Source: a virus
Taxonomy: Duplodnaviria; Caudoviricetes
DNA length: 64,000 nucleotides
IMG/VR virus record: IMGVR_UViG_3300043077_000173
Coordinates: 46,259-110,258 of that record
Reading direction: 5' to 3' (one strand)
Shown here: positions 35,921 through 64,000 of the stretch, piece by piece
Position numbering within the stretch: position 1 is the stretch's first letter
How the letters are laid out: every line of letters begins with the position of its first letter
Notes under the pieces: generated by a model
Told to the model about the DNA's origin: nothing
Seen by the model: only the letters and a program-made list of their open reading frames with translations
Database searches by the model: none
Position numbers and translations under genes: made by a program

Positions 35921-36736
35921 ATGCGTCAATTAACTATTTTTCCAAGCTTATACTGTCCCTTTAATTGTGCTTATTGCATCTTTAAAGATAAACTCTATAG
36001 TAAAGAATTACTTTCTTTAGATTCTTTGAAAGAGTTCCTTGTAAAAGATCATGAAAAATTTGACAAATTTGTTATTGATGGTGGTGATCCATTATCATTG
36101 AATGAATCGTATTTCAAATCTTTAGTAAGTATCTTGAAAGAGTTTAATAAAACGATTACTCTTAGATCGTATCCATATACTCTATTAAATACTCAAGAAG
36201 ATATCCATTACGATTTCTCATATGATTTTCTCGCAAAAGCTATGCCAAATGATGCTTGGGGAAACCTTTACAGCTTCAAGAAACCATTTGACCTTACAAT
36301 CACTTTATCACCAGCTTTATTCTCATATCATCCAAACGGAATTTTAAGAAAATTATCTATGTTGGAAAACCTTAAAAGAGTAGAGTTTGTCCCATACTTT
36401 AAAAACAAAAATTCTCAATACGATATCAATAGAAACGATTCACTTAAAGAATTTTCAAAACTTTTATTAGGCTCTCAATTAAACGTTCCATTCACAATCG
36501 TTAACAAAGAAATTATGAACAAAAAGATTTTAAAATCCTTTGCAGATCCTATCGATATATGCTTATTTCCAGATGGAAAGCTTTACAAAAAGGATTTTGT
36601 AGAGGATTTTCTAACTTTTAAAATGATTGATAACATAGACGATGTACAGCCAAACGTTTTACCTGAATCATGTGATATGTATGATAGAAACATTCAGGTA
36701 TGGTATAGCCAAAACATTTTAACTAAAGATTTTTAG
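35921..36736 (+). CDS. radical SAM protein without a SPASM domain
   Basis: CPFNCAYC (CxxxCxxC) and GGDP; CATAAATA at 35887-35894. Confidence 0.8.
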   Translation: MRQLTIFPSLYCPFNCAYCIFKDKLYSKELLSLDSLKEFLVKDHEKFDKFVIDGGDPLSLNESYFKSLVSILKEFNKTITLRSYPYTLLNTQEDIHYDFSYDFLAKAMPNDAWGNLYSFKKPFDLTITLSPALFSYHPNGILRKLSMLENLKRVEFVPYFKNKNSQYDINRNDSLKEFSKLLLGSQLNVPFTIVNKEIMNKKILKSFADPIDICLFPDGKLYKKDFVEDFLTFKMIDNIDDVQPNVLPESCDMYDRNIQVWYSQNILTKDF

Positions 36737-44376: not shown

Positions 44377-47355
44377 ATGGCAAAAAACACTACTCAAATT
44401 AGTTTGATCAAACATCGTAGAGGGAAATTATCTGAATTACCAACACAATTAAATGAAGGTGAATTTGGTCTAGCTCTAGATACCAACCAATTGTTTATCG
44501 GTAACCCTGAAAATGATGAACTCTCACAAAGAATTGAGGAAAATATCTTCCCTTATGGTAACATAGAGGTTTTAACAGAGTTCACAGACAACCTCAACAA
44601 AATCAAATACACATACAAGTCAAACACAGATGTTACCGCCAGACTACCTATTGTTATATATGGTAGTAATGCTAACCCAATTTTGCCAGCAAACAGTTCA
44701 ATCATCTTAAACTCCGATGAAATTTATTTTAAGAACAACTCTAGCTTACAAACTATTGTTGAAACAATTAATGAAGAATCTACCGAAGTTAAAGCGTTTA
44801 TTTATGACAATGCTTTTGTAGGCTTGATCTCAAATAGTACCGAAATTTTTATTGAAGATGGTACAGTTGGTACTACAAGTAACGTTTCATTATTAGGCTT
44901 TGGGGAAGATAGCTTTTATTCTCAAACTTCCGAAACATTACCTCAAAGAACTTTACAATCAACCTTAGATGATTATTGTTCAATCAAATCATTCGGCGTA
45001 AAAGGTAATGGAACTACAGATGATTCCGAAGCAATCTTTAATGCAATCATTTCTATAAACAAAGCTGGAGAAGAACCACAATTTTATAGAACCATTTACA
45101 TTCCAGCTGGTATATATAATATTTCTACAAAGCCCGTCCCATTACCAACCGGTACACATTTAAAAGGTGATGGTATAGGAAGAACCGTTATTAAAAACAA
45201 AGATTTATCCGAATGTTTAGTAATGGTTATGGATGATAATTACAACGTTGCTAATGCTACATCCTTTGGAAAAGATTCTAAAATCATTTCTAATATAATC
45301 GTTGAAGATCTAACGTTTGACGGCTCGGAAAATGATTCACAAATCTTGTCATTAGGATCTGTTGAAAACGTTTTATTCAAAAATGTCGAGTTCATAGGTA
45401 CTGATTTAACAACCCTTATCAATATTTCAAATAGCACATATAACAACAGTTCTCTACATATCGTTTTTGAAAACTGTGTATTCGATAACTGCTATCACGC
45501 TTTAACATCATCAACAAACGTTGAACACCTTGTTATTTCACACTGTTTATTCAAAGATTGTAACCACGAAGCTATCATTTTCAACAAATCAACAAATAAA
45601 ATCATCAATTCAATCATTGACGGAAACGATTTTGTAAATTGTGGTACAGGAAGCTATTTAATCATATCATTGTCTGAAAACTGTGAATATGTATCTGTTA
45701 TCAATAACAAATTTGAAGATAATGTCGCTAATAAAATATCTCCGATAGAAGCTTATTCATCAACATCTGACAAAACATTTACTGACATTCTTGATGCCAC
45801 AACAGATACCAAAAAGCTTTTACAGTTCAAGTTTACCCAACCCGTTTGGGAATATATTGACTATTTAATGAATCCAAATGGTCAGTATATATTAAAATCA
45901 GAATATGGTACAACCATTATAAATGGTGAAGAAAAAGCATCAGATTTAACAAACGGTTTAATCCTAACACAAGGTGATGCAACAAATGGAAATACCGTTT
46001 CTCTAAAATCTTCTTTAGATTATGGTGATATATCAATTAGTGGTAATGCATATGGATCTGTTCATTTAGGATCGGCCAATGAAACATCTCTTGAAGAATA
46101 TAACGAATATTATAACTATCACGAAGATGATATCATTATTTCATATGATTCTGTAAATCCTGGTATATATCGTTGTATCAGTCCTTGTACTGGTATTGGT
46201 ATCACAAATGAGGACTATTGGGAATATGTAGGTTCATTTGATCCTTCCATAATTCTTCATCATCAATTAGATGTCAATGAAAACGTTATCACAAACACAG
46301 GTACTTCCGGAGATATTGAATTTAAGATCGATGGTTCTGGTATTATGAAGGTTACAACCGAGTCTGATGGTGATACAGATGGAGCAACAGTTTATGCAAA
46401 TAATATCGCTTCAACAACAAATGCTATTGCAACGGTAGCATATGTTAATAAAGCAGCTTCATCGACAATTATAAATGAGTTCAATTACAACACTTTGATT
46501 GCAGATCCAGTCAACAAGTTCGATCTAATCACTTTTGACCCAAATATCTATGGAGATGTCGTTAATATTGATAAAATCTCTATCAATGTTCGTGTTCCTT
46601 TCTATCCTATTCAAGATCGTATTGCAGATGCTCAAACTTGGCAGCCATACAGCAAATACTATAAAGGCGATATCGTTTACTCTGCTGATGAAGGCATTTA
46701 TATGATATGCTTAGACGATCATATTTCTGGGGAAACAACTGATAATGGCGATAATGCTGACAACTATTGGGACGAGGTTAAAGTATCAGGTACTTGTTTA
46801 GATGGTTCTACAACCAATTTCAACGATGTCAAATACATCTCAATCATTGCCACAAATGATACAGAAAACCCTGCTCGTCTATTGTTTAATAAAAACGAAA
46901 TTGATATTACAAAGCGTGATATTCACTCAACTTATTATCCAGATTGGACTGCTAATAAAGCTTACAAAGTTGACGATAAAGTATCTTATCAAAATCGTTA
47001 TTGGAAATGCTTGAAAGCTCATACATCATCTGAAGCTACTGATTTGCATGATTCCAGCTTATGGACAATCATTTCAGAAGAAGGTTTTAACTACATCTAT
47101 GATTTTGATAGAGAAATTACACCAATTGATTTCAAAACAGAAGTTGAACTTGACGGAGAATCTTTAGAAACAACAAAGGTTTATAACTACTCTGGGTATA
47201 GACTTTATATGGAAATGTTTGATGAAAACATGAATCTAGTTCCTATAGCTAAACACGTCGAAGGTCAAGAAGATGATGACATTAGCTATTTTATGCAACT
47301 TTGCCCGACAGGTTATATGACAATTAGCATTCACTATATACGAGGTGAAAAATAA
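44377..47355 (+). CDS. tail fibre/spike with pectate-lyase-like beta-helix and CBM5/12-like modules
   Basis: RRG..LP.QL.EGE.GLA.DT..LFIG; FGVKGNGTTDDSEAI..AI, IYIPAGIY; W....YKVDDKVSY..RYWKCLKAHTS; CATAAATA at 44341. Confidence 0.75.
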   Translation: MAKNTTQISLIKHRRGKLSELPTQLNEGEFGLALDTNQLFIGNPENDELSQRIEENIFPYGNIEVLTEFTDNLNKIKYTYKSNTDVTARLPIVIYGSNANPILPANSSIILNSDEIYFKNNSSLQTIVETINEESTEVKAFIYDNAFVGLISNSTEIFIEDGTVGTTSNVSLLGFGEDSFYSQTSETLPQRTLQSTLDDYCSIKSFGVKGNGTTDDSEAIFNAIISINKAGEEPQFYRTIYIPAGIYNISTKPVPLPTGTHLKGDGIGRTVIKNKDLSECLVMVMDDNYNVANATSFGKDSKIISNIIVEDLTFDGSENDSQILSLGSVENVLFKNVEFIGTDLTTLINISNSTYNNSSLHIVFENCVFDNCYHALTSSTNVEHLVISHCLFKDCNHEAIIFNKSTNKIINSIIDGNDFVNCGTGSYLIISLSENCEYVSVINNKFEDNVANKISPIEAYSSTSDKTFTDILDATTDTKKLLQFKFTQPVWEYIDYLMNPNGQYILKSEYGTTIINGEEKASDLTNGLILTQGDATNGNTVSLKSSLDYGDISISGNAYGSVHLGSANETSLEEYNEYYNYHEDDIIISYDSVNPGIYRCISPCTGIGITNEDYWEYVGSFDPSIILHHQLDVNENVITNTGTSGDIEFKIDGSGIMKVTTESDGDTDGATVYANNIASTTNAIATVAYVNKAASSTIINEFNYNTLIADPVNKFDLITFDPNIYGDVVNIDKISINVRVPFYPIQDRIADAQTWQPYSKYYKGDIVYSADEGIYMICLDDHISGETTDNGDNADNYWDEVKVSGTCLDGSTTNFNDVKYISIIATNDTENPARLLFNKNEIDITKRDIHSTYYPDWTANKAYKVDDKVSYQNRYWKCLKAHTSSEATDLHDSSLWTIISEEGFNYIYDFDREITPIDFKTEVELDGESLETTKVYNYSGYRLYMEMFDENMNLVPIAKHVEGQEDDDISYFMQLCPTGYMTISIHYIRGEK

Positions 47356-52595: not shown

Positions 52596-52700
52596 ATCTT
52601 ATGAATAATGAGTTCTGTATTTGTTTCATGAGATTTTAAATATTCATATTTCGTGTTTGACTCCTGGAAGTGGTTCTTTTAAAAAGAGCCACTTTTTATT
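52596..52700 (+). ncRNA. candidate small RNA of about 100 nt
   Basis: TTGACA-17-TATAAA (52561-52589), no convincing ORF, terminator aagtggttcttt-t-aaaaagagccacttttt. Confidence 0.45.
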
Positions 52701-52756
52701 TGATTATTTGAAAATACTGTGATATAGTGAGTTTAAACTATTAGGAGTTAAAAGAT

Positions 52757-53398
52757 ATGGTAAACATTATTGAACCAAGTGCTAAAATCATTACAGATAT
52801 TGATGCTACAAAGATTAAGAAAAACATTGAAAGAGCTGCCAGATGTTGTTATAAAAGCGAAGATAAAATCTCTGAAGGCACTGAAAGTGCTGACAAGATT
52901 ATTAAAATGCTTTTGACAAAACATCATGAAGCTATGATAGAGTTTTCTGGAGATATTGATGTTGAAATCACTGTAGATATTGGTGCTCAAAGAGATTTTT
53001 CTCGTCATCGTCATATTTCAATGGCTTGCGAAAGCACAAGATACTGTTGCTACAATAAAGACAAATTTGGGGGTGAATTAAAAGTAATTAAGCCTTGTAA
53101 TATCGACGAAAATTCCGGATTATACCATACTTGGTTGAAGTCTATGGAGATGATAGAGAAAGAATATATGCTTATGGCAGAGTTAGGTGCTAAACCAGAT
53201 CAGATGCGTTTAATTCTGCCTTTAAGCACAGCTTGTACATTCCATATGTCTTGCAATATTCGTGAATGGCGACACATTTTAAGCCTGCGAACATCAACTG
53301 CCGCCCATCCTTCTGTTCAAAAGGTTGCTAATAGCATTTATGATCAATTTTGTGAACAAGGATTGGGACTATTCTTTGAAGATATTAAGGAACAATAA
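52757..53398 (+). CDS. thyX: flavin-dependent thymidylate synthase
   Basis: ARCCY, HEAMIE, RHRHISMACESTRY, NIREWRHILSLR..AAHP. Confidence 0.9.
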   Translation: MVNIIEPSAKIITDIDATKIKKNIERAARCCYKSEDKISEGTESADKIIKMLLTKHHEAMIEFSGDIDVEITVDIGAQRDFSRHRHISMACESTRYCCYNKDKFGGELKVIKPCNIDENSGLYHTWLKSMEMIEKEYMLMAELGAKPDQMRLILPLSTACTFHMSCNIREWRHILSLRTSTAAHPSVQKVANSIYDQFCEQGLGLFFEDIKEQ

Positions 53399-54732
53399 TG
53401 AAATTTGAGGATTATTTTAAGCTAAAAGAGGCTACAATTATTGTTAGCAATGGGTGCAACTTGAACTGCACCTATTGTTTCGAACATGATAAGACTAATG
53501 AAAAGCTATCAGGAGATGATATGAAAACAATTTTGGATAAATGCTATGAATCATATTCAAAGATTGATGATAAAAACAAAATACCATTGATAATAAATTT
53601 TTTTGGTGGTGAGCCGTTTTTAAACTTTGAAGTAATTGAGTATGCCTTAAAATACGCCAGAGATCAAAAGTATAATATGGAATTTGGGGTAACAACGAAC
53701 TTAACTATTCTCACGGATCATATGATTGATGTTATTGAAGAATATGAGTTAGGGTTGCTCATATCAATAGATGGGACAAAAGAAATACATGATCGAAACC
53801 GTTGTAAATCATTTGATACGGTTCAAAAGAATATAAAACGATTGATGGAAAAGCATTTAGGATACCTTTTAGAAGCAAGGATTACTTTAATGCCTCAAGA
53901 TGTTACATCGTTGCTAGATTCTATAAAAACCGTTGTAGATATGGGTATAGTAAATGTTGCTCCAGTTCCTGTTACTGATACCATATGGAACGATCAAGAC
54001 ATTATTAATCTGAAAGATAATTTGTCAATCGTTTGGCAATGGTTGTTTGATATGTATAACGATAATGATAATAAGAAAAACATTAGCATAAAGTTCATAG
54101 AAGATTATATGGAAAAGGTTTTAACCATGCAGTCTTTTGAAGATCAAACGAAAGTATGTTCAGCAGGTTCTAATCAAACGTGTTCTATTGGTGTAAATGG
54201 TGAAATAATGCCTTGTCATCAACGGCATACTGTAAATGTTGGTAAAGATAATTTAGTAATGGGTAATATTTTAGAAGATACTGATATAAAGCCTGTAGCG
54301 TTTAATAATATGACAAGAAACAGTGAGTTGGATTGTTCAACGTGTATTGCTAAAAACATTTGTAGAGGCGGTTGTCCTTCTGAAAACTTTACCTTAAACG
54401 GTAATGGTAATCAAATGAATAAAAACCAGTGTAGAATATATCAAGCAATGTGTGAAGTAGCCATCAATTTTCAAAATGATTTACTTAAATGCTCTAATAT
54501 AAGATCTCATAGGTTAAACGTTTTAGCAGAAAATCTAAAGCTTCTGGAAATATTTAAAAATGATGTTTTAGGAGAGAGTAAAACATCGAAAGAATATTTA
54601 ATAAAGCTTCATAAATTTTACGAAACGTTAATGTCAAAAGAAGGAATTTTATTACCAATGTTTGAAGAAGCTATAAATGTTCAGGTACAAAAATTGATAA
54701 ATACGTTCAGTTCTTATAAAAAGGAAAACTAA
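53398..54732 (+). CDS. radical SAM/SPASM-domain peptide/protein maturase
   Basis: CNLNCTYC, FFGGEP, TTN, ISIDG; SPASM CSAG...GEIMPC...CSTCIAKNICRGGCPSEN...C. Confidence 0.9.
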   Translation: MKFEDYFKLKEATIIVSNGCNLNCTYCFEHDKTNEKLSGDDMKTILDKCYESYSKIDDKNKIPLIINFFGGEPFLNFEVIEYALKYARDQKYNMEFGVTTNLTILTDHMIDVIEEYELGLLISIDGTKEIHDRNRCKSFDTVQKNIKRLMEKHLGYLLEARITLMPQDVTSLLDSIKTVVDMGIVNVAPVPVTDTIWNDQDIINLKDNLSIVWQWLFDMYNDNDNKKNISIKFIEDYMEKVLTMQSFEDQTKVCSAGSNQTCSIGVNGEIMPCHQRHTVNVGKDNLVMGNILEDTDIKPVAFNNMTRNSELDCSTCIAKNICRGGCPSENFTLNGNGNQMNKNQCRIYQAMCEVAINFQNDLLKCSNIRSHRLNVLAENLKLLEIFKNDVLGESKTSKEYLIKLHKFYETLMSKEGILLPMFEEAINVQVQKLINTFSSYKKEN

Positions 54733-55556
54733 TGGCTATTAAAATCGCTCGAAAGTTTTATGAAAGTCTTCGTTCACGCTTTGTATCATTGGCTCGTAAA
54801 TGGAATGGTATTAACAGTGTTATTCAAATGTATGGTAAAAGTCCAGCTTATGATGGTAGATGGGTTCCAGGACGTAAAGGTAGTAAGATTGCGACAGGTG
54901 ATCAAATTCCTGAATCTTCAAGAAAAACCATTACGAAAAATTATTCAAATACGACTAATGAGATAAACCCAACTATTGCTGAAGAAACATCTAGAATCCA
55001 TACTCTTGGTAATGAAAACTATATAAGAGATGCCGTTATATCATTGAATAATATGACTCATTCACAAATTGGTCAATATGAGGGTTTGACTAAACAATCT
55101 CTTTCAGAACGTGGTACAAAAACTTCTACAGATTTAGCCAGCTTAAAGCTTACTTCAAATAACACGGATTTACAAGAACTGTTTACTGCAGACAATGGTG
55201 TTAAAAAGTTTTCTCAATTATCAAATAATTCTTCTGATAAAAACGGTAACACAAGTCTTTTATCTAAACCGTATCAAACCTCTGCTATATTAGATAATAG
55301 TTCAAACATCTTAACATTTAATGTTGACTCAAATTATTCCTTAAAGAGTGATGAAACGGTTAAATATGAAGACTATGAAGAAATCAATGAAGTATTAGAT
55401 AGAATAAGTATTTGCTTAAATAGACGCAATAAATGGTTTGACTCAAATGGTAGATGTCAATTAACTTGTCAAGTTAATTGTCAACATACTTGCCAAATTT
55501 CGTGTCAGGGTTGCAATACTAAACAATGTCACCACCAACACTGTGGCTCTTTTTAA
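54732..55556 (+). CDS. protein with C-terminal Cys-rich (CQxx)n tail, putative radical SAM substrate
   Basis: Ends CQLTCQVNCQHTCQISCQGCNTKQCHHQHCGSF; TAATG overlap with the maturase. Confidence 0.75.
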   Translation: MAIKIARKFYESLRSRFVSLARKWNGINSVIQMYGKSPAYDGRWVPGRKGSKIATGDQIPESSRKTITKNYSNTTNEINPTIAEETSRIHTLGNENYIRDAVISLNNMTHSQIGQYEGLTKQSLSERGTKTSTDLASLKLTSNNTDLQELFTADNGVKKFSQLSNNSSDKNGNTSLLSKPYQTSAILDNSSNILTFNVDSNYSLKSDETVKYEDYEEINEVLDRISICLNRRNKWFDSNGRCQLTCQVNCQHTCQISCQGCNTKQCHHQHCGSF

Positions 55557-55673: not shown

Positions 55674-56834
55674 ATGGCAGAAGAAATTAGTAGAAATAAG
55701 ATAAAAGACGTTTATTTGTATTCAAATGACATACCAAAGGCATGTGAATACTTTAATATAACGGTTGAAAAGTTTAATGAATTGGTTAAGCAATATGGTA
55801 TTGATAAAGAATGCCAAGAAAAAATACAAAAAATAACTCCAGAAATCATTATTAATGAATATTACGAAAATAATACATCTTTACGGGATATTTGTAAAAA
55901 ATACCATACTCATTGGACAACGTTGAAAAAAATGATGGAAGATAATGATATAAAGGTTAAAGATTCAAAACATGATCTCATTCCTGATGAGGTATATCAA
56001 TATTATGTAGTTGAAAAGCATTCACAAGAAGAAACTTGTTCATATTTTAATGTTCCTTATTCATATTTTAGGAAATTCATTATTGAAAATAACATCAAAC
56101 GAACAAAAATTGCTAATAAAAGGAATTTATATAAAGGAACTTATGAAGATTTTTATCAATATTATGTAACCGAAAGCCATACATTAGACGATACAGCAAA
56201 ACATTTTAATATAGGCTATTATACCGCCCAAAATTATGCTATAAAAAATGATATGAAACGTTCTAAAGAGCAACGTTTAAATAATATGTATGAGTCAAAC
56301 CTTAAAACTATAGGTTCTAAAACAACATTTGGTACAGATACGTATAAAGAATGGTATACCGAACATAAAGAGGATATTAAGAAAAAAGTTGAACAAACGT
56401 GTTTAGAAAAATATGGTGCTAAAAGCTTTGTAGAATCTAAAGAAGCCAAAGATGTTTGGAAAATGGGAACATCTAAAACAGAAAACGAGATTTATGAAAA
56501 GCTTTTAAGTAAATATTCTGACGTAAAACGTTGGTATACGGATGAGCGATATCCATTTGAATGTGATTTTTATATACCATCAAAGGATTTATTCATTGAA
56601 TATCAAGGATTTTCAACACATGGTGAAGAACCATTTAATGAAAACTGTGAAAGTCATCTAAAATTATTGAAAAAAATGCTTGACAATCCGCACAAATACC
56701 AGCATGATACAGTATATATTTGGACGATTAGAGATCCTTTAAAACGAAAGACTGCTAAAGAGAATGGTTTAAATTATTTAGAATTCTTTAATGTTAAACA
56801 GTTTGATAAATGGTTTGAAAATGATGGAGAATAA
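55674..56834 (+). CDS. free-standing putative homing endonuclease, paralog 4 (HTH-like repeats)
   Basis: TCLEKYG; YPFECDFYIPSKDLFIEYQG; WTIRDPLKRKTAKENGLNYLEFF; promoter TTGACA at 55616. Confidence 0.7.
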   Translation: MAEEISRNKIKDVYLYSNDIPKACEYFNITVEKFNELVKQYGIDKECQEKIQKITPEIIINEYYENNTSLRDICKKYHTHWTTLKKMMEDNDIKVKDSKHDLIPDEVYQYYVVEKHSQEETCSYFNVPYSYFRKFIIENNIKRTKIANKRNLYKGTYEDFYQYYVTESHTLDDTAKHFNIGYYTAQNYAIKNDMKRSKEQRLNNMYESNLKTIGSKTTFGTDTYKEWYTEHKEDIKKKVEQTCLEKYGAKSFVESKEAKDVWKMGTSKTENEIYEKLLSKYSDVKRWYTDERYPFECDFYIPSKDLFIEYQGFSTHGEEPFNENCESHLKLLKKMLDNPHKYQHDTVYIWTIRDPLKRKTAKENGLNYLEFFNVKQFDKWFENDGE

Positions 56835-56835
56835 G

Positions 56836-57657
56836 ATGAGAGAAGATAAACAAGAGATTTTAGATTTTATCAAAAGCCTTAGAGGCAATTATGTGGAAGA
56901 TTTTGTTACTCCGTCTGGGGCAGATATTGATGTTTATTATCCTTCGAGAAAGATGGGTATTAGATTATCTGGCTATTTCTGGAAACCGAATGATAATCCG
57001 AAGCAAATGATGACAAAAGGGATTAAAGATGGGATTAGAATTGTTCATATATACGATTACGAGTGGAATAATTGTAAAGAAAACTTTAAAGAGTTTTTAA
57101 AAAACTTTATTAACAGTCGTGGTAAACGTATGATTAGAAGCACTGAGGTTAAAGAGATTGGTGCTGAAGAATTTGCTGACTTTTTAAAGGAAAATCATTT
57201 ATTTGTAGATACCATTAAAGGATGTACAGTAATGTATGGTATTTACGAAAATGATTTATTGGTAAGTGTTGCTGGATTTAATAAAAGGAATAGCAAATTA
57301 TATGATTGGGAATGGAAACGTTTTAGTATCAGATATGGATGGATGTCAGAACACAATTTAGCCAAATATTTTTTGAAAGAGTTTGAGAAAAATCATACAG
57401 GTGTATTGGTTGACTATCAACAATGTGATAGATTCCCTTTTACAACCGATGAAGAAATGGGCTTTGTTAAAAAAGGTTCAAATGCAGGTGTTGTTTCTAT
57501 AAACGTTAATACAGGAATCTTTACCCGTCATGGTTTTATCCCTGAAAAGCCTTTAACTAAAGAAGAAACAATGAAAAAGTATGGCTTTGATGTTGAGGTT
57601 AAAACTTGTGGCACGGTTACATGGCTTAAAGTATTGGAAAATAATATTGACAAATAG
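56836..57657 (+). CDS. Hef-like endonuclease homologue with degenerate active site
   Basis: DIDVYYP..KMGIRLSGYFW, GIRIVHIYDYEW, FLKENH, YGIY...LVSV..F, WEWKRF. Confidence 0.55.
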   Translation: MREDKQEILDFIKSLRGNYVEDFVTPSGADIDVYYPSRKMGIRLSGYFWKPNDNPKQMMTKGIKDGIRIVHIYDYEWNNCKENFKEFLKNFINSRGKRMIRSTEVKEIGAEEFADFLKENHLFVDTIKGCTVMYGIYENDLLVSVAGFNKRNSKLYDWEWKRFSIRYGWMSEHNLAKYFLKEFEKNHTGVLVDYQQCDRFPFTTDEEMGFVKKGSNAGVVSINVNTGIFTRHGFIPEKPLTKEETMKKYGFDVEVKTCGTVTWLKVLENNIDK

Positions 57658-59627: not shown

Positions 59628-60905
59628 ATGAAAGTTATTAAGAAAAATGGTTCAGAAGCAACGTTTTATAAAAGTAATATTATTAATGCTATATCGAATG
59701 CTAATATGAAAGTTGGTTTAGATAAACGGTTTACCAACGAAGAAATTAAAAAGATTGCTTCAGATATTGAAACAGTTGTTAAGGAAGGAAAACATACTAT
59801 TTCAACTGCTGATATTCAAGATATGGTTGAACGAGCTATTTCCGTAAATTATGATGTACTTAAAGAATATATTCAATATCGTTATGCTAAAGAATTGCAA
59901 GCTCGTCAAAATACAACCGATGATTCTATTCTTTCTCTTTTAAGTAATGCTAATGAAACATTACGCCAAGAAAATTCGAATAAAAATGTAACCATTGTAT
60001 CAACTATGCGAGATTATATGGCTGGTGAAGTTTCTAAAGACTTATCCAAACGTTATTTAATTCCATCAGATATTTGGGATGCCCATGAAAAAGGTATTAT
60101 TCATTTTCACGATACAGACTATTTTAGTATGCCAATTCATAACTGTGATTTATGGAATCTTGAAGATATGCTTCAAAATGGTACAATGATTTCAGGAGTA
60201 AAGATTGATAAACCAAAATCTTTTAGTACCGCTTGTAATATAGCAACCCAAATTGTGGCTCAGGTAGCAAGTAGCCAATATGGTGGACAGACATTTACAC
60301 TGACACATTTAGCTCCATTTGTTGATGTTTCACGTAAAAAATTTACTAAACAAATTAAGGAAGAATTTCCAGATATTTCTGAAGAAGAATTAAAAAGAGT
60401 CGTTGAATTACGAGTTAAACGTGAAATTGAAGTTGGCGTTCAAACTATGAATTATCAATTAATTACATTACAGACAACAAATGGGCAAACACCATTTGTT
60501 ACAGTGTTTATGTATTTAAATGAAACAGATGATGAACAAACAAAGGCAGATTTAGCTTTAATCATTGAAGAAGTATTAAACCAACGAATTCTCGGCGTAA
60601 AAAATTCTAAGGGTCAATATGTAGCCCCAGCATTTCCTAAACTAATTTATGCTTTAGAAGAAGATAATATTACAGAAGATTCAAAATATTGGTATTTAAC
60701 CGAGCTTGCTGCTAAATGTTCAGCTAAACGTCTTGTACCTGATTATATTTCAGAAAAGAAAATGAAAGAGCTTAAAAAGGATAAGAAAGGCAACGGTTAC
60801 TGTTATCCAGCGATGGGGTGCAGGAGCTTCCTCACCGTTTATACCACAAAAAATGCAATTGTTCGTCCATATGAAGAATTTAATCTCGATGATGAGGAAA
60901 TTTAA
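59628..60905 (+). CDS. nrdD: anaerobic ribonucleotide reductase, N-terminal part (ATP cone to finger-loop Cys)
   Basis: ATP cone, ENSNKN, GIIHFHD, NC, SSQYGGQ, FPKLIY, MGCRSFL. Confidence 0.92.
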   Translation: MKVIKKNGSEATFYKSNIINAISNANMKVGLDKRFTNEEIKKIASDIETVVKEGKHTISTADIQDMVERAISVNYDVLKEYIQYRYAKELQARQNTTDDSILSLLSNANETLRQENSNKNVTIVSTMRDYMAGEVSKDLSKRYLIPSDIWDAHEKGIIHFHDTDYFSMPIHNCDLWNLEDMLQNGTMISGVKIDKPKSFSTACNIATQIVAQVASSQYGGQTFTLTHLAPFVDVSRKKFTKQIKEEFPDISEEELKRVVELRVKREIEVGVQTMNYQLITLQTTNGQTPFVTVFMYLNETDDEQTKADLALIIEEVLNQRILGVKNSKGQYVAPAFPKLIYALEEDNITEDSKYWYLTELAAKCSAKRLVPDYISEKKMKELKKDKKGNGYCYPAMGCRSFLTVYTTKNAIVRPYEEFNLDDEEI

Positions 60906-61669
60906 TGTACAAAATATATAAAATTACCAATACCATTAATGGTAAAATATATGTTGGACAAACAATGAGATCGTTGAATGAACGATTACATCGTCATATA
61001 GAGGATAGTAAAAAAAGACTTCATACAAAATTTGCGAATGCTATAAAAAAATATGGTAAAGAAGCATTCATTATTGAACAAATTGATACAGCTGAAACAA
61101 AAGAGGATGCAAACTGTAAAGAAATATTTTGGATTAAAGAACTTAAAGCAACTGATCGTTATATTGGGTATAATACTACTGATGGTGGTGATGGTGGAAA
61201 TACCTATTTATATAAGACAAACCGTGAAATGTTATCTATTAAACACAAGATTTCAAAAGGTTTAGCAAGTAAAAATAATGGTAAGCACCGTTCCATTTAT
61301 GTTAAAAATATTATAACTGGTGATGTAAAAGAGTATGGAGCTATTGAAGATTTTTGTAGAATAATATATTTACCCCATAAAATTGTTTGTTCTAGCTTAC
61401 ATAAAGCAAATTTTTATGGAATACAAACAGTTATTAATGGGAAATATATTGTAAGCGATACCAAAGAATTTTCAAGATATACCTTTTATAAAACACGATG
61501 TGGTGAAACTCCATTTAAAGTAACGAATTTGTTGACAAATGAAGTATTTTATGGAATATGTAAACGAGAATGTGCCGAACACTTTAATTTAGCTGATAAA
61601 AGATGTTTGGAGAGAAAAACTTTTTTAGTAGAACCTATGAGAAACGAGGATAAAAAGGAAGTAAAATGA
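60905..61669 (+). CDS. GIY-YIG homing endonuclease lying between the nrdD halves
   Basis: KIYKITN.INGKIYVGQT...R..H, E.FWI, GYN...GG. Confidence 0.88.
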   Translation: MYKIYKITNTINGKIYVGQTMRSLNERLHRHIEDSKKRLHTKFANAIKKYGKEAFIIEQIDTAETKEDANCKEIFWIKELKATDRYIGYNTTDGGDGGNTYLYKTNREMLSIKHKISKGLASKNNGKHRSIYVKNIITGDVKEYGAIEDFCRIIYLPHKIVCSSLHKANFYGIQTVINGKYIVSDTKEFSRYTFYKTRCGETPFKVTNLLTNEVFYGICKRECAEHFNLADKRCLERKTFLVEPMRNEDKKEVK

Positions 61670-62790
61670 AAGCAGAAGATTTATTTAATAGATTGATTGA
61701 AAAATATGATTTACCTAAAAATTCAAAAGACATCACTCCACCTAAACGGATTGAAATTAAAGGTAAAGGTGTTATTAAAAAACTTAAAAAAGTCAATGAT
61801 GAGGTTATTATTGAGCTTGAAGATAGAGCAAAGTATTATTCGAGATTTAATCAGGGCGTAGTTACAATAAACCTTGTTGATGTAGCTTGCTCATCAAAGA
61901 AAAATATGGACCTGTTCTGGTACATTTTAAATGATCGTTTAGAATTATGTCATAGAGCGTTAAGGGTACGTCATGAACATTTAAGAGGTGTTAAATCTGA
62001 TGTAGCACCAATTTTATGGCAACACGGAGCATTAGCTCGTTTACAACCGGGTGAAACTATTGATTCATTATTGTATAATGGTTATTCAACATTATCATTA
62101 GGATATGCTGGATTATATGAATGTGTTAAATATATGACTGGATATTCTCATACTGATGAAGAAAATGGTGGCAAAGAGTTTGCTATGAAGGTTATGAAAG
62201 CTTTAAATGAAGCTTGTGCTAAATGGAAGCAAGTAGAAAAGATTGATTATTCATTATATGGTACACCAATGGAATCCACTACATATAAATTTGCTAAATG
62301 CTTACAGAAACGCTTTGGCATTATTCAAGATGTTACGGATCATAACTACATTACCAATTCATATCACGTTAATGTTCGTGAAAATATTGATGCATTTAAA
62401 AAACTTGATTTTGAAGCTGATTTCCAACAATTATCACCTGGTGGAGCTATTTCATATGTTGAATTACCAGATATGCAAAACAATATTCCAGCAGTTCTTG
62501 AAGTCATCAAACATATCTATGACACAATTAGCTATGCTGAATTAAACACAAAGCAAGACTATTGTGAACATTGTGGCTATAATGGTGAGTTAGAAATAAC
62601 AAAAGATGAAGATGATAAAACAATTTGGAGATGCCCACAATGTGGATGTGGTGATGGAAGTGTTACAGGATCTGAGGCTGAAGATGCCAACCTGTTACAT
62701 CCAGTTCGTAGAGTATGCGGATACATTAGTTCAACCGTACCAAATGTTGGACGTTCTGAAGAAATAAGAGATCGTGTACTTCATCTGTAG
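61666..62790 (+). CDS. nrdD: anaerobic ribonucleotide reductase, C-terminal part (glycyl radical domain)
   Basis: RFNQGVVTINL, YGTPMEST, YITNSYHV, CEHC...CPQC, RRVCGY. Confidence 0.92.
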   Translation: MKAEDLFNRLIEKYDLPKNSKDITPPKRIEIKGKGVIKKLKKVNDEVIIELEDRAKYYSRFNQGVVTINLVDVACSSKKNMDLFWYILNDRLELCHRALRVRHEHLRGVKSDVAPILWQHGALARLQPGETIDSLLYNGYSTLSLGYAGLYECVKYMTGYSHTDEENGGKEFAMKVMKALNEACAKWKQVEKIDYSLYGTPMESTTYKFAKCLQKRFGIIQDVTDHNYITNSYHVNVRENIDAFKKLDFEADFQQLSPGGAISYVELPDMQNNIPAVLEVIKHIYDTISYAELNTKQDYCEHCGYNGELEITKDEDDKTIWRCPQCGCGDGSVTGSEAEDANLLHPVRRVCGYISSTVPNVGRSEEIRDRVLHL

Positions 62791-63753: not shown

Positions 63754-64000
63754 ATTACGCAAATATCAAATATTTAGATGTCGCTAATGGAATAGGACTA
63801 AGAACATCATTATTTGTTAGTGGTTGTAGGAACGGCTGCCCATTCTGTTTTAATAAAGCAGCTCAACTGTTTGATTATGGCAAAGAATATACCCAAGATG
63901 TTGAAAAGGAAATACTTGATTCTATAGAGTATTCGCATGTAAAAGGTTTATCAATTCTTGGTGGTGATCCTATGGAATTAGAGAATCAAGAAACCGTTTT
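63750..64000 (+). CDS. nrdG: anaerobic RNR activase, partial
   Basis: Hand-translated MNYANIKYLDVANGIGLRTSLFVSGCRNGCPFCFN...LSILGGDP. Confidence 0.92.
   Translation, partial: MNYANIKYLDVANGIGLRTSLFVSGCRNGCPFCFNKAAQLFDYGKEYTQDVEKEILDSIEYSHVKGLSILGGDPMELENQETV

Follow-up and report, generated by a model that had tools for sequence, protein, structure and literature searches.

A two-gene cassette of uncultured large phages that pairs a radical SAM/SPASM enzyme with a protein ending in a cysteine ladder

The 64,000-nucleotide stretch of viral DNA analysed here (the window) covers bases 46259-110258 of the 110-kb IMG/VR record IMGVR_UViG_3300043077_000173, whose CheckV completeness is 29%; the G+C content is 31.5%. 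Three translationally coupled genes (Table 1) encode, in this order, the thymidylate synthase ThyX, a radical S-adenosylmethionine (SAM) enzyme with a SPASM region, and a protein of 274 amino acids (aa) that ends in a ladder of Cys residues; the last two form the cassette under study. Both junctions of the trio are TAATG overlaps, in which the stop codons TAA (53396-53398 and 54730-54732) run into the ATG of the following gene (53398 and 54732, respectively). The second of these overlaps had been pointed out in a first-pass annotation of the window and is confirmed by the open reading frames (ORFs) and the sequence. Since no fewer than 12 contigs, drawn from several independent samples, have the identical gene order, the arrangement is not an assembly artefact. 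The trio is preceded by a sigma-70-like promoter, and no TATAAATA late-promoter motif is present upstream of thyX, the enzyme gene or the Cys-tail gene, which together argue for early or middle rather than late expression. Judged by its gene content, the source is a T4-like phage, because the window contains a gp13-like neck protein and a split NrdD among its T4-type genes, and because gp23 and the prohead protease adjoin one homologue of the cassette; it is placed among the jumbo phages because its relatives lie on contigs of 206-388 kb.

Table 1. Features of the cassette and of the region just upstream, in window coordinates.
Feature	Position	Strand	Evidence or remark
Terminator-like hairpin, closes upstream unit	52666..52696	+	14-pair stem followed by a T-run
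Sigma-70-like promoter before thyX	52700..52728	+	TTGATT, 17 nt, TATAGT, with TG; consensus match only
thyX (encodes flavin-dependent thymidylate synthase), opens the coupled trio	52757..53398	+	PF02511, 117.5 bits
Radical SAM/SPASM gene, 444 aa	53398..54732	+	ORF; PF04055, NCBIfam, PDB and AlphaFold2 evidence
Radical SAM cluster motif C20-x3-C24-x2-C27	53455..53478	+	Invariant in 19 orthologues
SPASM region, seven Cys (C254, C273, C313, C316, C322, C326, C345)	54157..54432	+	Invariant in 19 orthologues
Family-specific C-terminal helical extension, about residues 365-444	54490..54729	+	Candidate substrate-docking domain
Cys-tailed protein gene, 274 aa (folded body and C-terminal module)	54732..55556	+	ORF; homologue alignment; AlphaFold2
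Amphipathic helix (residues 212-230) and W235-F236-D237 before the ladder	55365..55442	+	Conserved; candidate recognition element
Cys ladder C242-x3-C-x3-C-x3-C-x3-C-x2-C-x4-C-x4-C271, then G-S-F and stop	55455..55544	+	Proposed modified core

The enzyme belongs to the radical SAM superfamily (PF04055, 63.4 bits against a cut-off of 29.5). Its membership among the SPASM enzymes is indicated by the seven invariant Cys, which include a CX2CX5CX3C block at residues 313-326, and by a fold that superposes on those of CteB and anSME; the Pfam SPASM model falls below its cut-off for the window enzyme (14.6 versus 21.5 bits) and passes it in the L006 orthologue (25.3). An apparent split of the enzyme in L006 was rejected as biology, being due to a scaffold gap (a run of X). 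In the AlphaFold2 (AF2) model, which has a pLDDT score (predicted local distance difference test) of 87, the closest fold is that of CteB (Foldseek E 7e-19, template modelling (TM) score 0.64), followed by anSME, TigE, ChlB, SuiB and SkfB. CteB is also the closest PDB entry by sequence (2e-24, query residues 10-356 against CteB 97-446). Because this alignment begins at residue 97 of CteB and at residue 10 of the query, the phage enzyme lacks an N-terminal recognition element (RRE) of the kind used by maturases of RiPPs, the peptides that are made ribosomally and modified after translation. Among the NCBIfam models the highest scores are those of PapB (NF047865; 193.1 bits, cut-off 340), QhpD (TIGR03906; 142.7 bits, cut-off 453), nif11 (138 bits) and the SCIFF maturase ScfB/CteB (TIGR03974; 122.2 bits, cut-off 425), and the best models are all maturases that form thioethers or otherwise cross-link peptides or proteins. 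The model for CXXX-repeat target maturases (TIGR04115) gives 93.1 bits against a cut-off of 350, and no amine dehydrogenase genes lie near the cassette. We class the enzyme with CteB, PapB and QhpD as a radical SAM/SPASM protein with three clusters. Beyond the CteB-aligned region, its C-terminal extension is modelled as three helices (residues 371-391, 398-413 and 420-443; pLDDT 82-90) and contains an NIRSR..LN...ENLK block that is conserved in the alignment of 19 orthologues. The orthologue clade is sharply separated from other proteins: in a collection of 5.8 billion proteins, about 110 clusters reach 206 bits or more, and no protein beyond them exceeds 110 bits.

Several orthologues carry inteins with a LAGLIDADG or Hint domain (L007:1-2169, P0150-P0153 and P0163), and the intein of L007 ends ...HN immediately before C27, the third Cys of the CX3CX2C motif. 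The orthologue at L005:6652-7998 has six additional residues between the first and second Cys of the same motif (C-x9-C-x2-C versus C-x3-C-x2-C), which could represent a true variant or an assembly error.

The Cys residues of the 274-aa protein are located at positions 228, 242, 246, 250, 254, 258, 261, 266 and 271, and the first-pass annotation was exact in placing eight of them within the last 33 residues (55455-55553). Given a Cys frequency of 1.5% in the 45 long ORFs of the window, the probability of finding eight or more Cys by chance in any 33-aa stretch of these ORFs is about 6e-4; the other ORFs reach a maximum of five. The first ~225 aa had been described as Cys-free and rich in Ser, Thr and Asn, a description that stands (71 of 225 residues are Ser, Thr or Asn, and residues 1-227 are free of Cys), but not in the sense of low-complexity filler, as residues 1-240 are predicted to be folded. 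In the AF2 model, built on a 29-sequence alignment (pLDDT 81, predicted TM score 0.79), these residues confidently form a bundle of three long helices with a small beta subdomain, and the tail is modelled as disordered, with pLDDT below 50 over residues 250-274. The protein has no Pfam match, no NCBIfam match and no meaningful PHROG match; in particular, neither the full protein nor its 58-aa tail matches the SCIFF precursor model (TIGR03973) or any other NCBIfam model at E up to 1. Searches with the body fold revealed no relative that convinces: they returned nothing below E 1 from the PDB with Foldseek (the weak top rows being tip proteins of type III secretion systems), Z scores of at most 8.6 on generic helical bundles in VIA (6.4 for TssK) and TM scores below 0.3 in the Atlas, whose own model has a pLDDT of 0.34. 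The BFVD matches of the body are two proteins of uncultured Myoviridae from human metagenomes, and one bears the automatic name 'Six-cysteine peptide SCIFF'. A PDB profile search yielded only designed helical proteins, aligned to the helix before the tail, and no solved relative of the tail itself.

Conservation within the family is concentrated at the C-terminus. Ten homologues with 32-58% identity to the window protein share an N-terminal region with an invariant HTLGNEN.IR, a variable middle and a near-invariant end. A profile search of 1.84 billion representatives recovered the tail module in 124 representative proteins of 49-950 aa, which have only their last ~70 residues in common, in every case at the very C-terminal end. 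Among 132 proteins retrieved, 97 have precisely the spacing C-x3-C-x3-C-x3-C-x3-C-x2-C-x4-C-x4-C, with 1-5 residues after the last Cys; within these 97, Gln follows Cys2, Cys3, Cys4 and Cys5 in 95, 97, 87 and 97%, respectively, and His follows Cys7 in 100%. The retrieved proteins also have an aromatic-aromatic-Asp motif 4-6 residues ahead of Cys1. Among the homologue bodies are CBM_5_12, F5/8 type C and Gly_rich_2 domains and segments matching PHROG 'tail protein', 'tail fiber assembly' and 'minor tail' families, and Pfam and PHROG scans of 30 further family members were mostly empty. A subfamily of 740-911 aa (L014/L070, P0037, P0041, P0046, P0050, P0057 and P0073) has a shortened tail with three Cys (WFD..G.CQRSCQINCQT...); it still follows an enzyme orthologue, whose C-terminal extension is the most divergent in the alignment.

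Tail module and enzyme are strictly associated, whichever of the two is taken as the starting point. Starting from the tail, three IMG/VR scans with alignment queries and look-ups of single homologues led to about 24 distinct viral contigs plus several contigs from ENA, Logan and JGI; a viral scan with a single tail-protein query retrieved nothing, so that alignments were needed. Every locus with a true tail module has an enzyme orthologue directly upstream on the same strand, 32-61% identical over its full length (E <1e-70) and separated by 3-240 nt (665 nt in one lineage), and this holds even where the remainder of the tail-bearing protein is unrelated. From the enzyme side, the scan returned the same IMG/VR contigs and two more. 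A tail-bearing ORF lies downstream in 26 of 26 orthologue contigs, whereas none is found at 54 loci of other phage SPASM enzymes, with identities of at most 28% (Fisher p 1e-21). Co-occurrence in related phages, on which the pairing of maturase and Cys-rich tail proposed in the first-pass annotation had been made to depend beforehand, is thus found throughout, the two genes being adjacent and co-oriented in all 26 IMG/VR contigs. At four loci (L019, L059, L082 and L083) a single enzyme gene precedes a pair of tail-bearing ORFs whose bodies differ (559 and 443 aa in L059), which implies that recognition element and core must both lie within the ~70 residues in common. Outside these contigs, 185,579 prokaryote species genomes searched with the tail profile yielded no relative; in GenBank phages nothing matched the tail gene at the DNA or protein level, and the closest enzyme match has 26% identity. 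On present sequence data, the cassette is confined to uncultured large phages. Because the gene pair recurs in every related phage checked, the tail is very probably modified by the neighbouring enzyme.

The reading that we favour, with a probability of roughly 0.6, is one in which thioether links are introduced into the tail by the enzyme and the modified tail remains on the body. It is based on the class of the enzyme and on its closest characterised relatives, which are thioether formers, on the strict coupling just described, and on the precedent for protein substrates set by QhpC and CrpA. The two genes would then constitute a phage-specific maturation cassette, in which the enzyme acts on the disordered tail of the protein translated right after it. 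The three-helix extension of the enzyme may dock the conserved helix ahead of the tail together with the neighbouring Trp-Phe-Asp motif, and the Cys ladder would then thread through the active site. As in ranthipeptide maturases, a 5'-deoxyadenosyl radical generated by reductive cleavage of SAM would abstract a side-chain hydrogen, and a Cys thiolate would close the thioether. The Gln that follows Cys2-5 (the Q-x-x-C / C-Q unit) would be the likeliest acceptor, giving rise to a ladder of small rings. The product would not be cut off and would remain as a C-terminal knot of the folded protein.

The cassette resembles several known systems without coinciding with any of them. Like SCIFF (CteA/Tte1186a with CteB/Tte1186; TIGR03973/TIGR03974), whose CteB is the closest solved relative, it has an enzyme with three Fe-S cluster motifs and a C-terminal substrate core with Cys at every fourth residue and small or polar residues in between. 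In contrast to CteB, the phage enzyme has no N-terminal RRE of ~96 residues and bears the C-terminal helical extension instead; the substrate is a folded 274-aa protein with eight tail Cys rather than a ~45-aa peptide with six, its tail has no TIGR03973 match, and it is found only in phages. PapB, the top NCBIfam model, aligns over nearly its whole length, and the repeated short Cys units of the tail recall those that in PapA yield a ladder of small thioether rings, but the candidate acceptor in the phage is Gln in C-Q-x-x-C, not Asp in C-x3-D, and the substrate is a protein. It has been established that PapB forms Cys-X3-Asp thioether rings in PapA (freyrasin) (PMC8172795, PMC9413430) and that the thioether of CteA joins Cys and Thr (PMC8172795), and it is by analogy with these that Gln is proposed as acceptor. 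QhpD, which acts on QhpC of quinohemoprotein amine dehydrogenase (PMC8172795), and CrpC, which acts on CrpA of Methanococcus voltae (PMC13692751), are radical SAM/SPASM enzymes that, as is postulated here for the phage enzyme, introduce thioethers into a protein that stays intact; CrpA, in addition, has C-terminal Cys repeats with putative Gln/Asp acceptors (PMC13692751). The phage cassette differs from both in its substrate, in the organism (phage versus bacterium or archaeon) and in recognition, its enzyme being RRE-free, and the CrpC family model (TIGR04463) is not among the 25 best models for the phage enzyme. With the CXXX-repeat maturases (TIGR04115) it shares a Cys at every fourth residue beside a SPASM enzyme. 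The Asn-x-x-Cys beta-thioether motif of NxxcB offers a further analogy for a Gln acceptor. In its architecture, namely the missing RRE, the C-terminal extension of the enzyme and a substrate module of the follower type, the cassette stands apart from these systems, and full-text literature searches brought up no description of it.

Long CQxxCExx repeats resembling the tail also occur in other phage proteins (L030, L031, L105 and L109), but none of these ends in the fixed eight-Cys module or has an orthologue of the enzyme as its partner. Those of L030 and L031 were considered as family members and rejected, as they are different long Cys-repeat proteins. In L105 and L109 (around 3209), proteins with four-residue C/E/Q repeats (CExxCExxCQ...) lie near a non-orthologous SPASM enzyme and seem to represent a separate, analogous system.

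The enzyme might also act on the tail through another chemistry, such as alpha-carbon (sactionine) linkage, C-C or ether cross-linking, epimerisation or Cys oxidation of the anSME type. SPASM enzymes are capable of all of these, and models for anSME, SuiB, YydG-type and cyclophane-forming enzymes also score for the phage protein. However, the top-scoring models and the best structural match are thioether formers, and the invariant residues of the substrate are Cys and Gln rather than the aromatic-basic pairs of cyclophane systems. The target motif of anSME is C/S-x-P/A-x-R, and it is absent from the tail. We regard such a chemistry as quite improbable.

Eight Cys and one invariant His are ligand-like residues, and a further possibility is that the tail is an autonomous metal (Zn, Fe or Fe-S) or disulfide knot, the enzyme having some other task in which the tail serves as partner or electron carrier, or else a role in nucleotide or DNA metabolism. 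In favour of the latter, thyX is translationally coupled to the enzyme gene here, and radical SAM enzymes of phages are involved in the hypermodification of thymidine (PMC8989533). Nevertheless, thyX, WYL_2 and DNA ligase neighbour the cassette only in the T4-like lineage, and thyX is absent from it in the other lineages, whereas the linkage between enzyme and tail is universal. The operon with thyX noted in the first-pass annotation is therefore real at this locus, as the TAATG coupling attests, but thyX is not part of the system, and a role in thymidine hypermodification was rejected because the linkage is lineage-specific. Moreover, the nearest relatives of the enzyme, both by sequence and by fold, are modifiers of peptides and proteins with full SPASM domains. 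As for the knot itself, the C-x3-C spacing is not that of ferredoxins or zinc fingers, the profile search of the PDB found no solved relative, and it is not obvious what part the Gln that almost invariably follows four consecutive ladder Cys would play in binding a metal. Zinc knuckles are usually well modelled by AF2, yet the tail has a pLDDT below 50, although this is weak evidence. An autonomous knot with an enzyme engaged elsewhere is accordingly regarded as unlikely.

On the other hand, if the tail is modified, it could afterwards be cleaved from the body to yield a free peptide of the ranthipeptide kind that serves in signalling, in manipulating the host or in killing competitors, in which case the 240-residue body would be a giant leader. 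The C-x3-C periodicity of the tail is like that of SCIFF cores, one family member bears the automatic SCIFF name mentioned above, and the enzyme is closest to ranthipeptide maturases. Long leaders are known from other RiPP classes, those of the nif11 and NHLP types, and would lend such a leader some plausibility. However, no peptidase, transporter, exporter or immunity gene is present in any of the cassette neighbourhoods listed, and the would-be leaders range from ~70 to 950 aa, some with carbohydrate-binding and tail-type domains. In addition, only the last ~70 residues are common to the family, which points to recognition next to the core rather than in a leader, and the body is a confidently folded domain in the AF2 model. 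Release of a peptide is considered improbable for these reasons. Of the two outcomes contemplated in the first-pass annotation, a cross-linked phage protein or a released peptide, the former is thus favoured: retention of the tail would be consistent with bodies that are folded, very varied and in part equipped with carbohydrate-binding inserts, and with the lack of a protease or exporter gene nearby.

Assuming that thioethers are formed and retained, the Cys-tailed protein is probably host-facing or virion-associated, and its cross-links would protect it from reduction and proteolysis in an anoxic habitat. The phage, taken to be one of anaerobes, carries genes for the anaerobic NrdD/NrdG, and a redox-insensitive knot would suit a secreted or virion-exposed protein of such a phage. 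L056 is a jumbo phage that encodes an RNA polymerase domain, and the ORFs on either side of its cassette weakly match PHROG tail and tail-fibre families (E 1e-5 to 1e-7). As a more tentative generalisation, somewhat short of even odds, large phages of anaerobes may staple the C-termini of host-binding virion proteins with radical SAM-made thioethers by means of a portable follower module of ~70 residues and without an RRE. For the window protein as a fibre or adhesin there is no Pfam, PHROG or fold match, and it is only the homologues that carry CBM_5_12, F5/8 type C, Gly_rich_2 and tail-type segments.

Several observations weigh against the thioether reading or its extension to virion proteins. 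No named maturase family has a curated cut-off that the enzyme reaches, and neither NCBIfam, with its SCIFF model, nor Pfam contains a model that matches the tail. The thioether chemistry is argued from analogy; the eight Cys and the invariant His could form a metal site instead, and the low AF2 confidence of the tail does not decide between a metal site and modification. The body resembles no known virion protein in the Foldseek PDB, VIA and Atlas searches. Within the T4-like lineage, the early- or middle-type promoter setting of the trio speaks against a structural role, and the cassette lies here amid nucleotide-metabolism genes, contrary to what is expected for a virion protein. Furthermore, most relatives encode one to three additional PapB-like SPASM enzymes and a helical protein of 364-394 aa downstream of the tail gene; neither the additional enzymes nor the helical partner were found in this 110-kb record, so the local set may be incomplete.

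Should the proposed chemistry be correct, the proteins of viruses would join small bacterial peptides and two known cellular proteins as substrates of thioether cross-linking by radical SAM enzymes. Such cross-linking would provide a new type of maturation for virion or host-facing proteins, one that needs no disulfides in anoxic habitats, and, if the stapled proteins belong to the virion, would amount to a RiPP-type post-translational modification of a virus structural protein. From a practical standpoint, a compact RRE-free enzyme acting on a short C-terminal tag that is naturally borne by many unrelated bodies would suit the enzymatic stapling of recombinant proteins, and the two-gene form of the window is the smallest version of the cassette.

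With regard to the surroundings, the window holds the minimal two-gene pair, and the genome is incomplete. The slot after the tail gene, which in relatives is followed by the accessory SPASM enzymes, is occupied here by a homing-endonuclease-like gene consisting of two overlapping ORFs of 386 and 288 aa (window 55674-57657). These match the N- and C-terminal halves of a single 549-aa ORF at the same site in L002, and the gene is probably split by a frameshift near 56791-56834. Beside the accessory SPASM enzymes of other phages there are Cys-poor helical proteins of 373-562 aa without a family match (L002:12978-14099, L056:13313-14497 and L056:10600-12288), which belong to unrelated jumbo-phage lineages and may act as partner or chaperone; those of L002 and L056 share an N-terminal ML.Y.PER.Y.

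Elsewhere in the window, NrdD is encoded by two ORFs of 425 and 374 aa (59628-62790) with a GIY-YIG endonuclease gene between them, and NrdG begins at the end of the record (63813-63977). A tailspike-like protein of 992 aa (44377-47355) combines a pectate-lyase-like beta-helix with a CBM_5_12 domain, the type that is also inserted in some Cys-tailed homologues. Finally, a short, divergent radical SAM protein of 271 aa (35921-36736) is devoid of a SPASM domain and has only weak N-terminal matches, to models of the NrdG, KamA and EpmB types.

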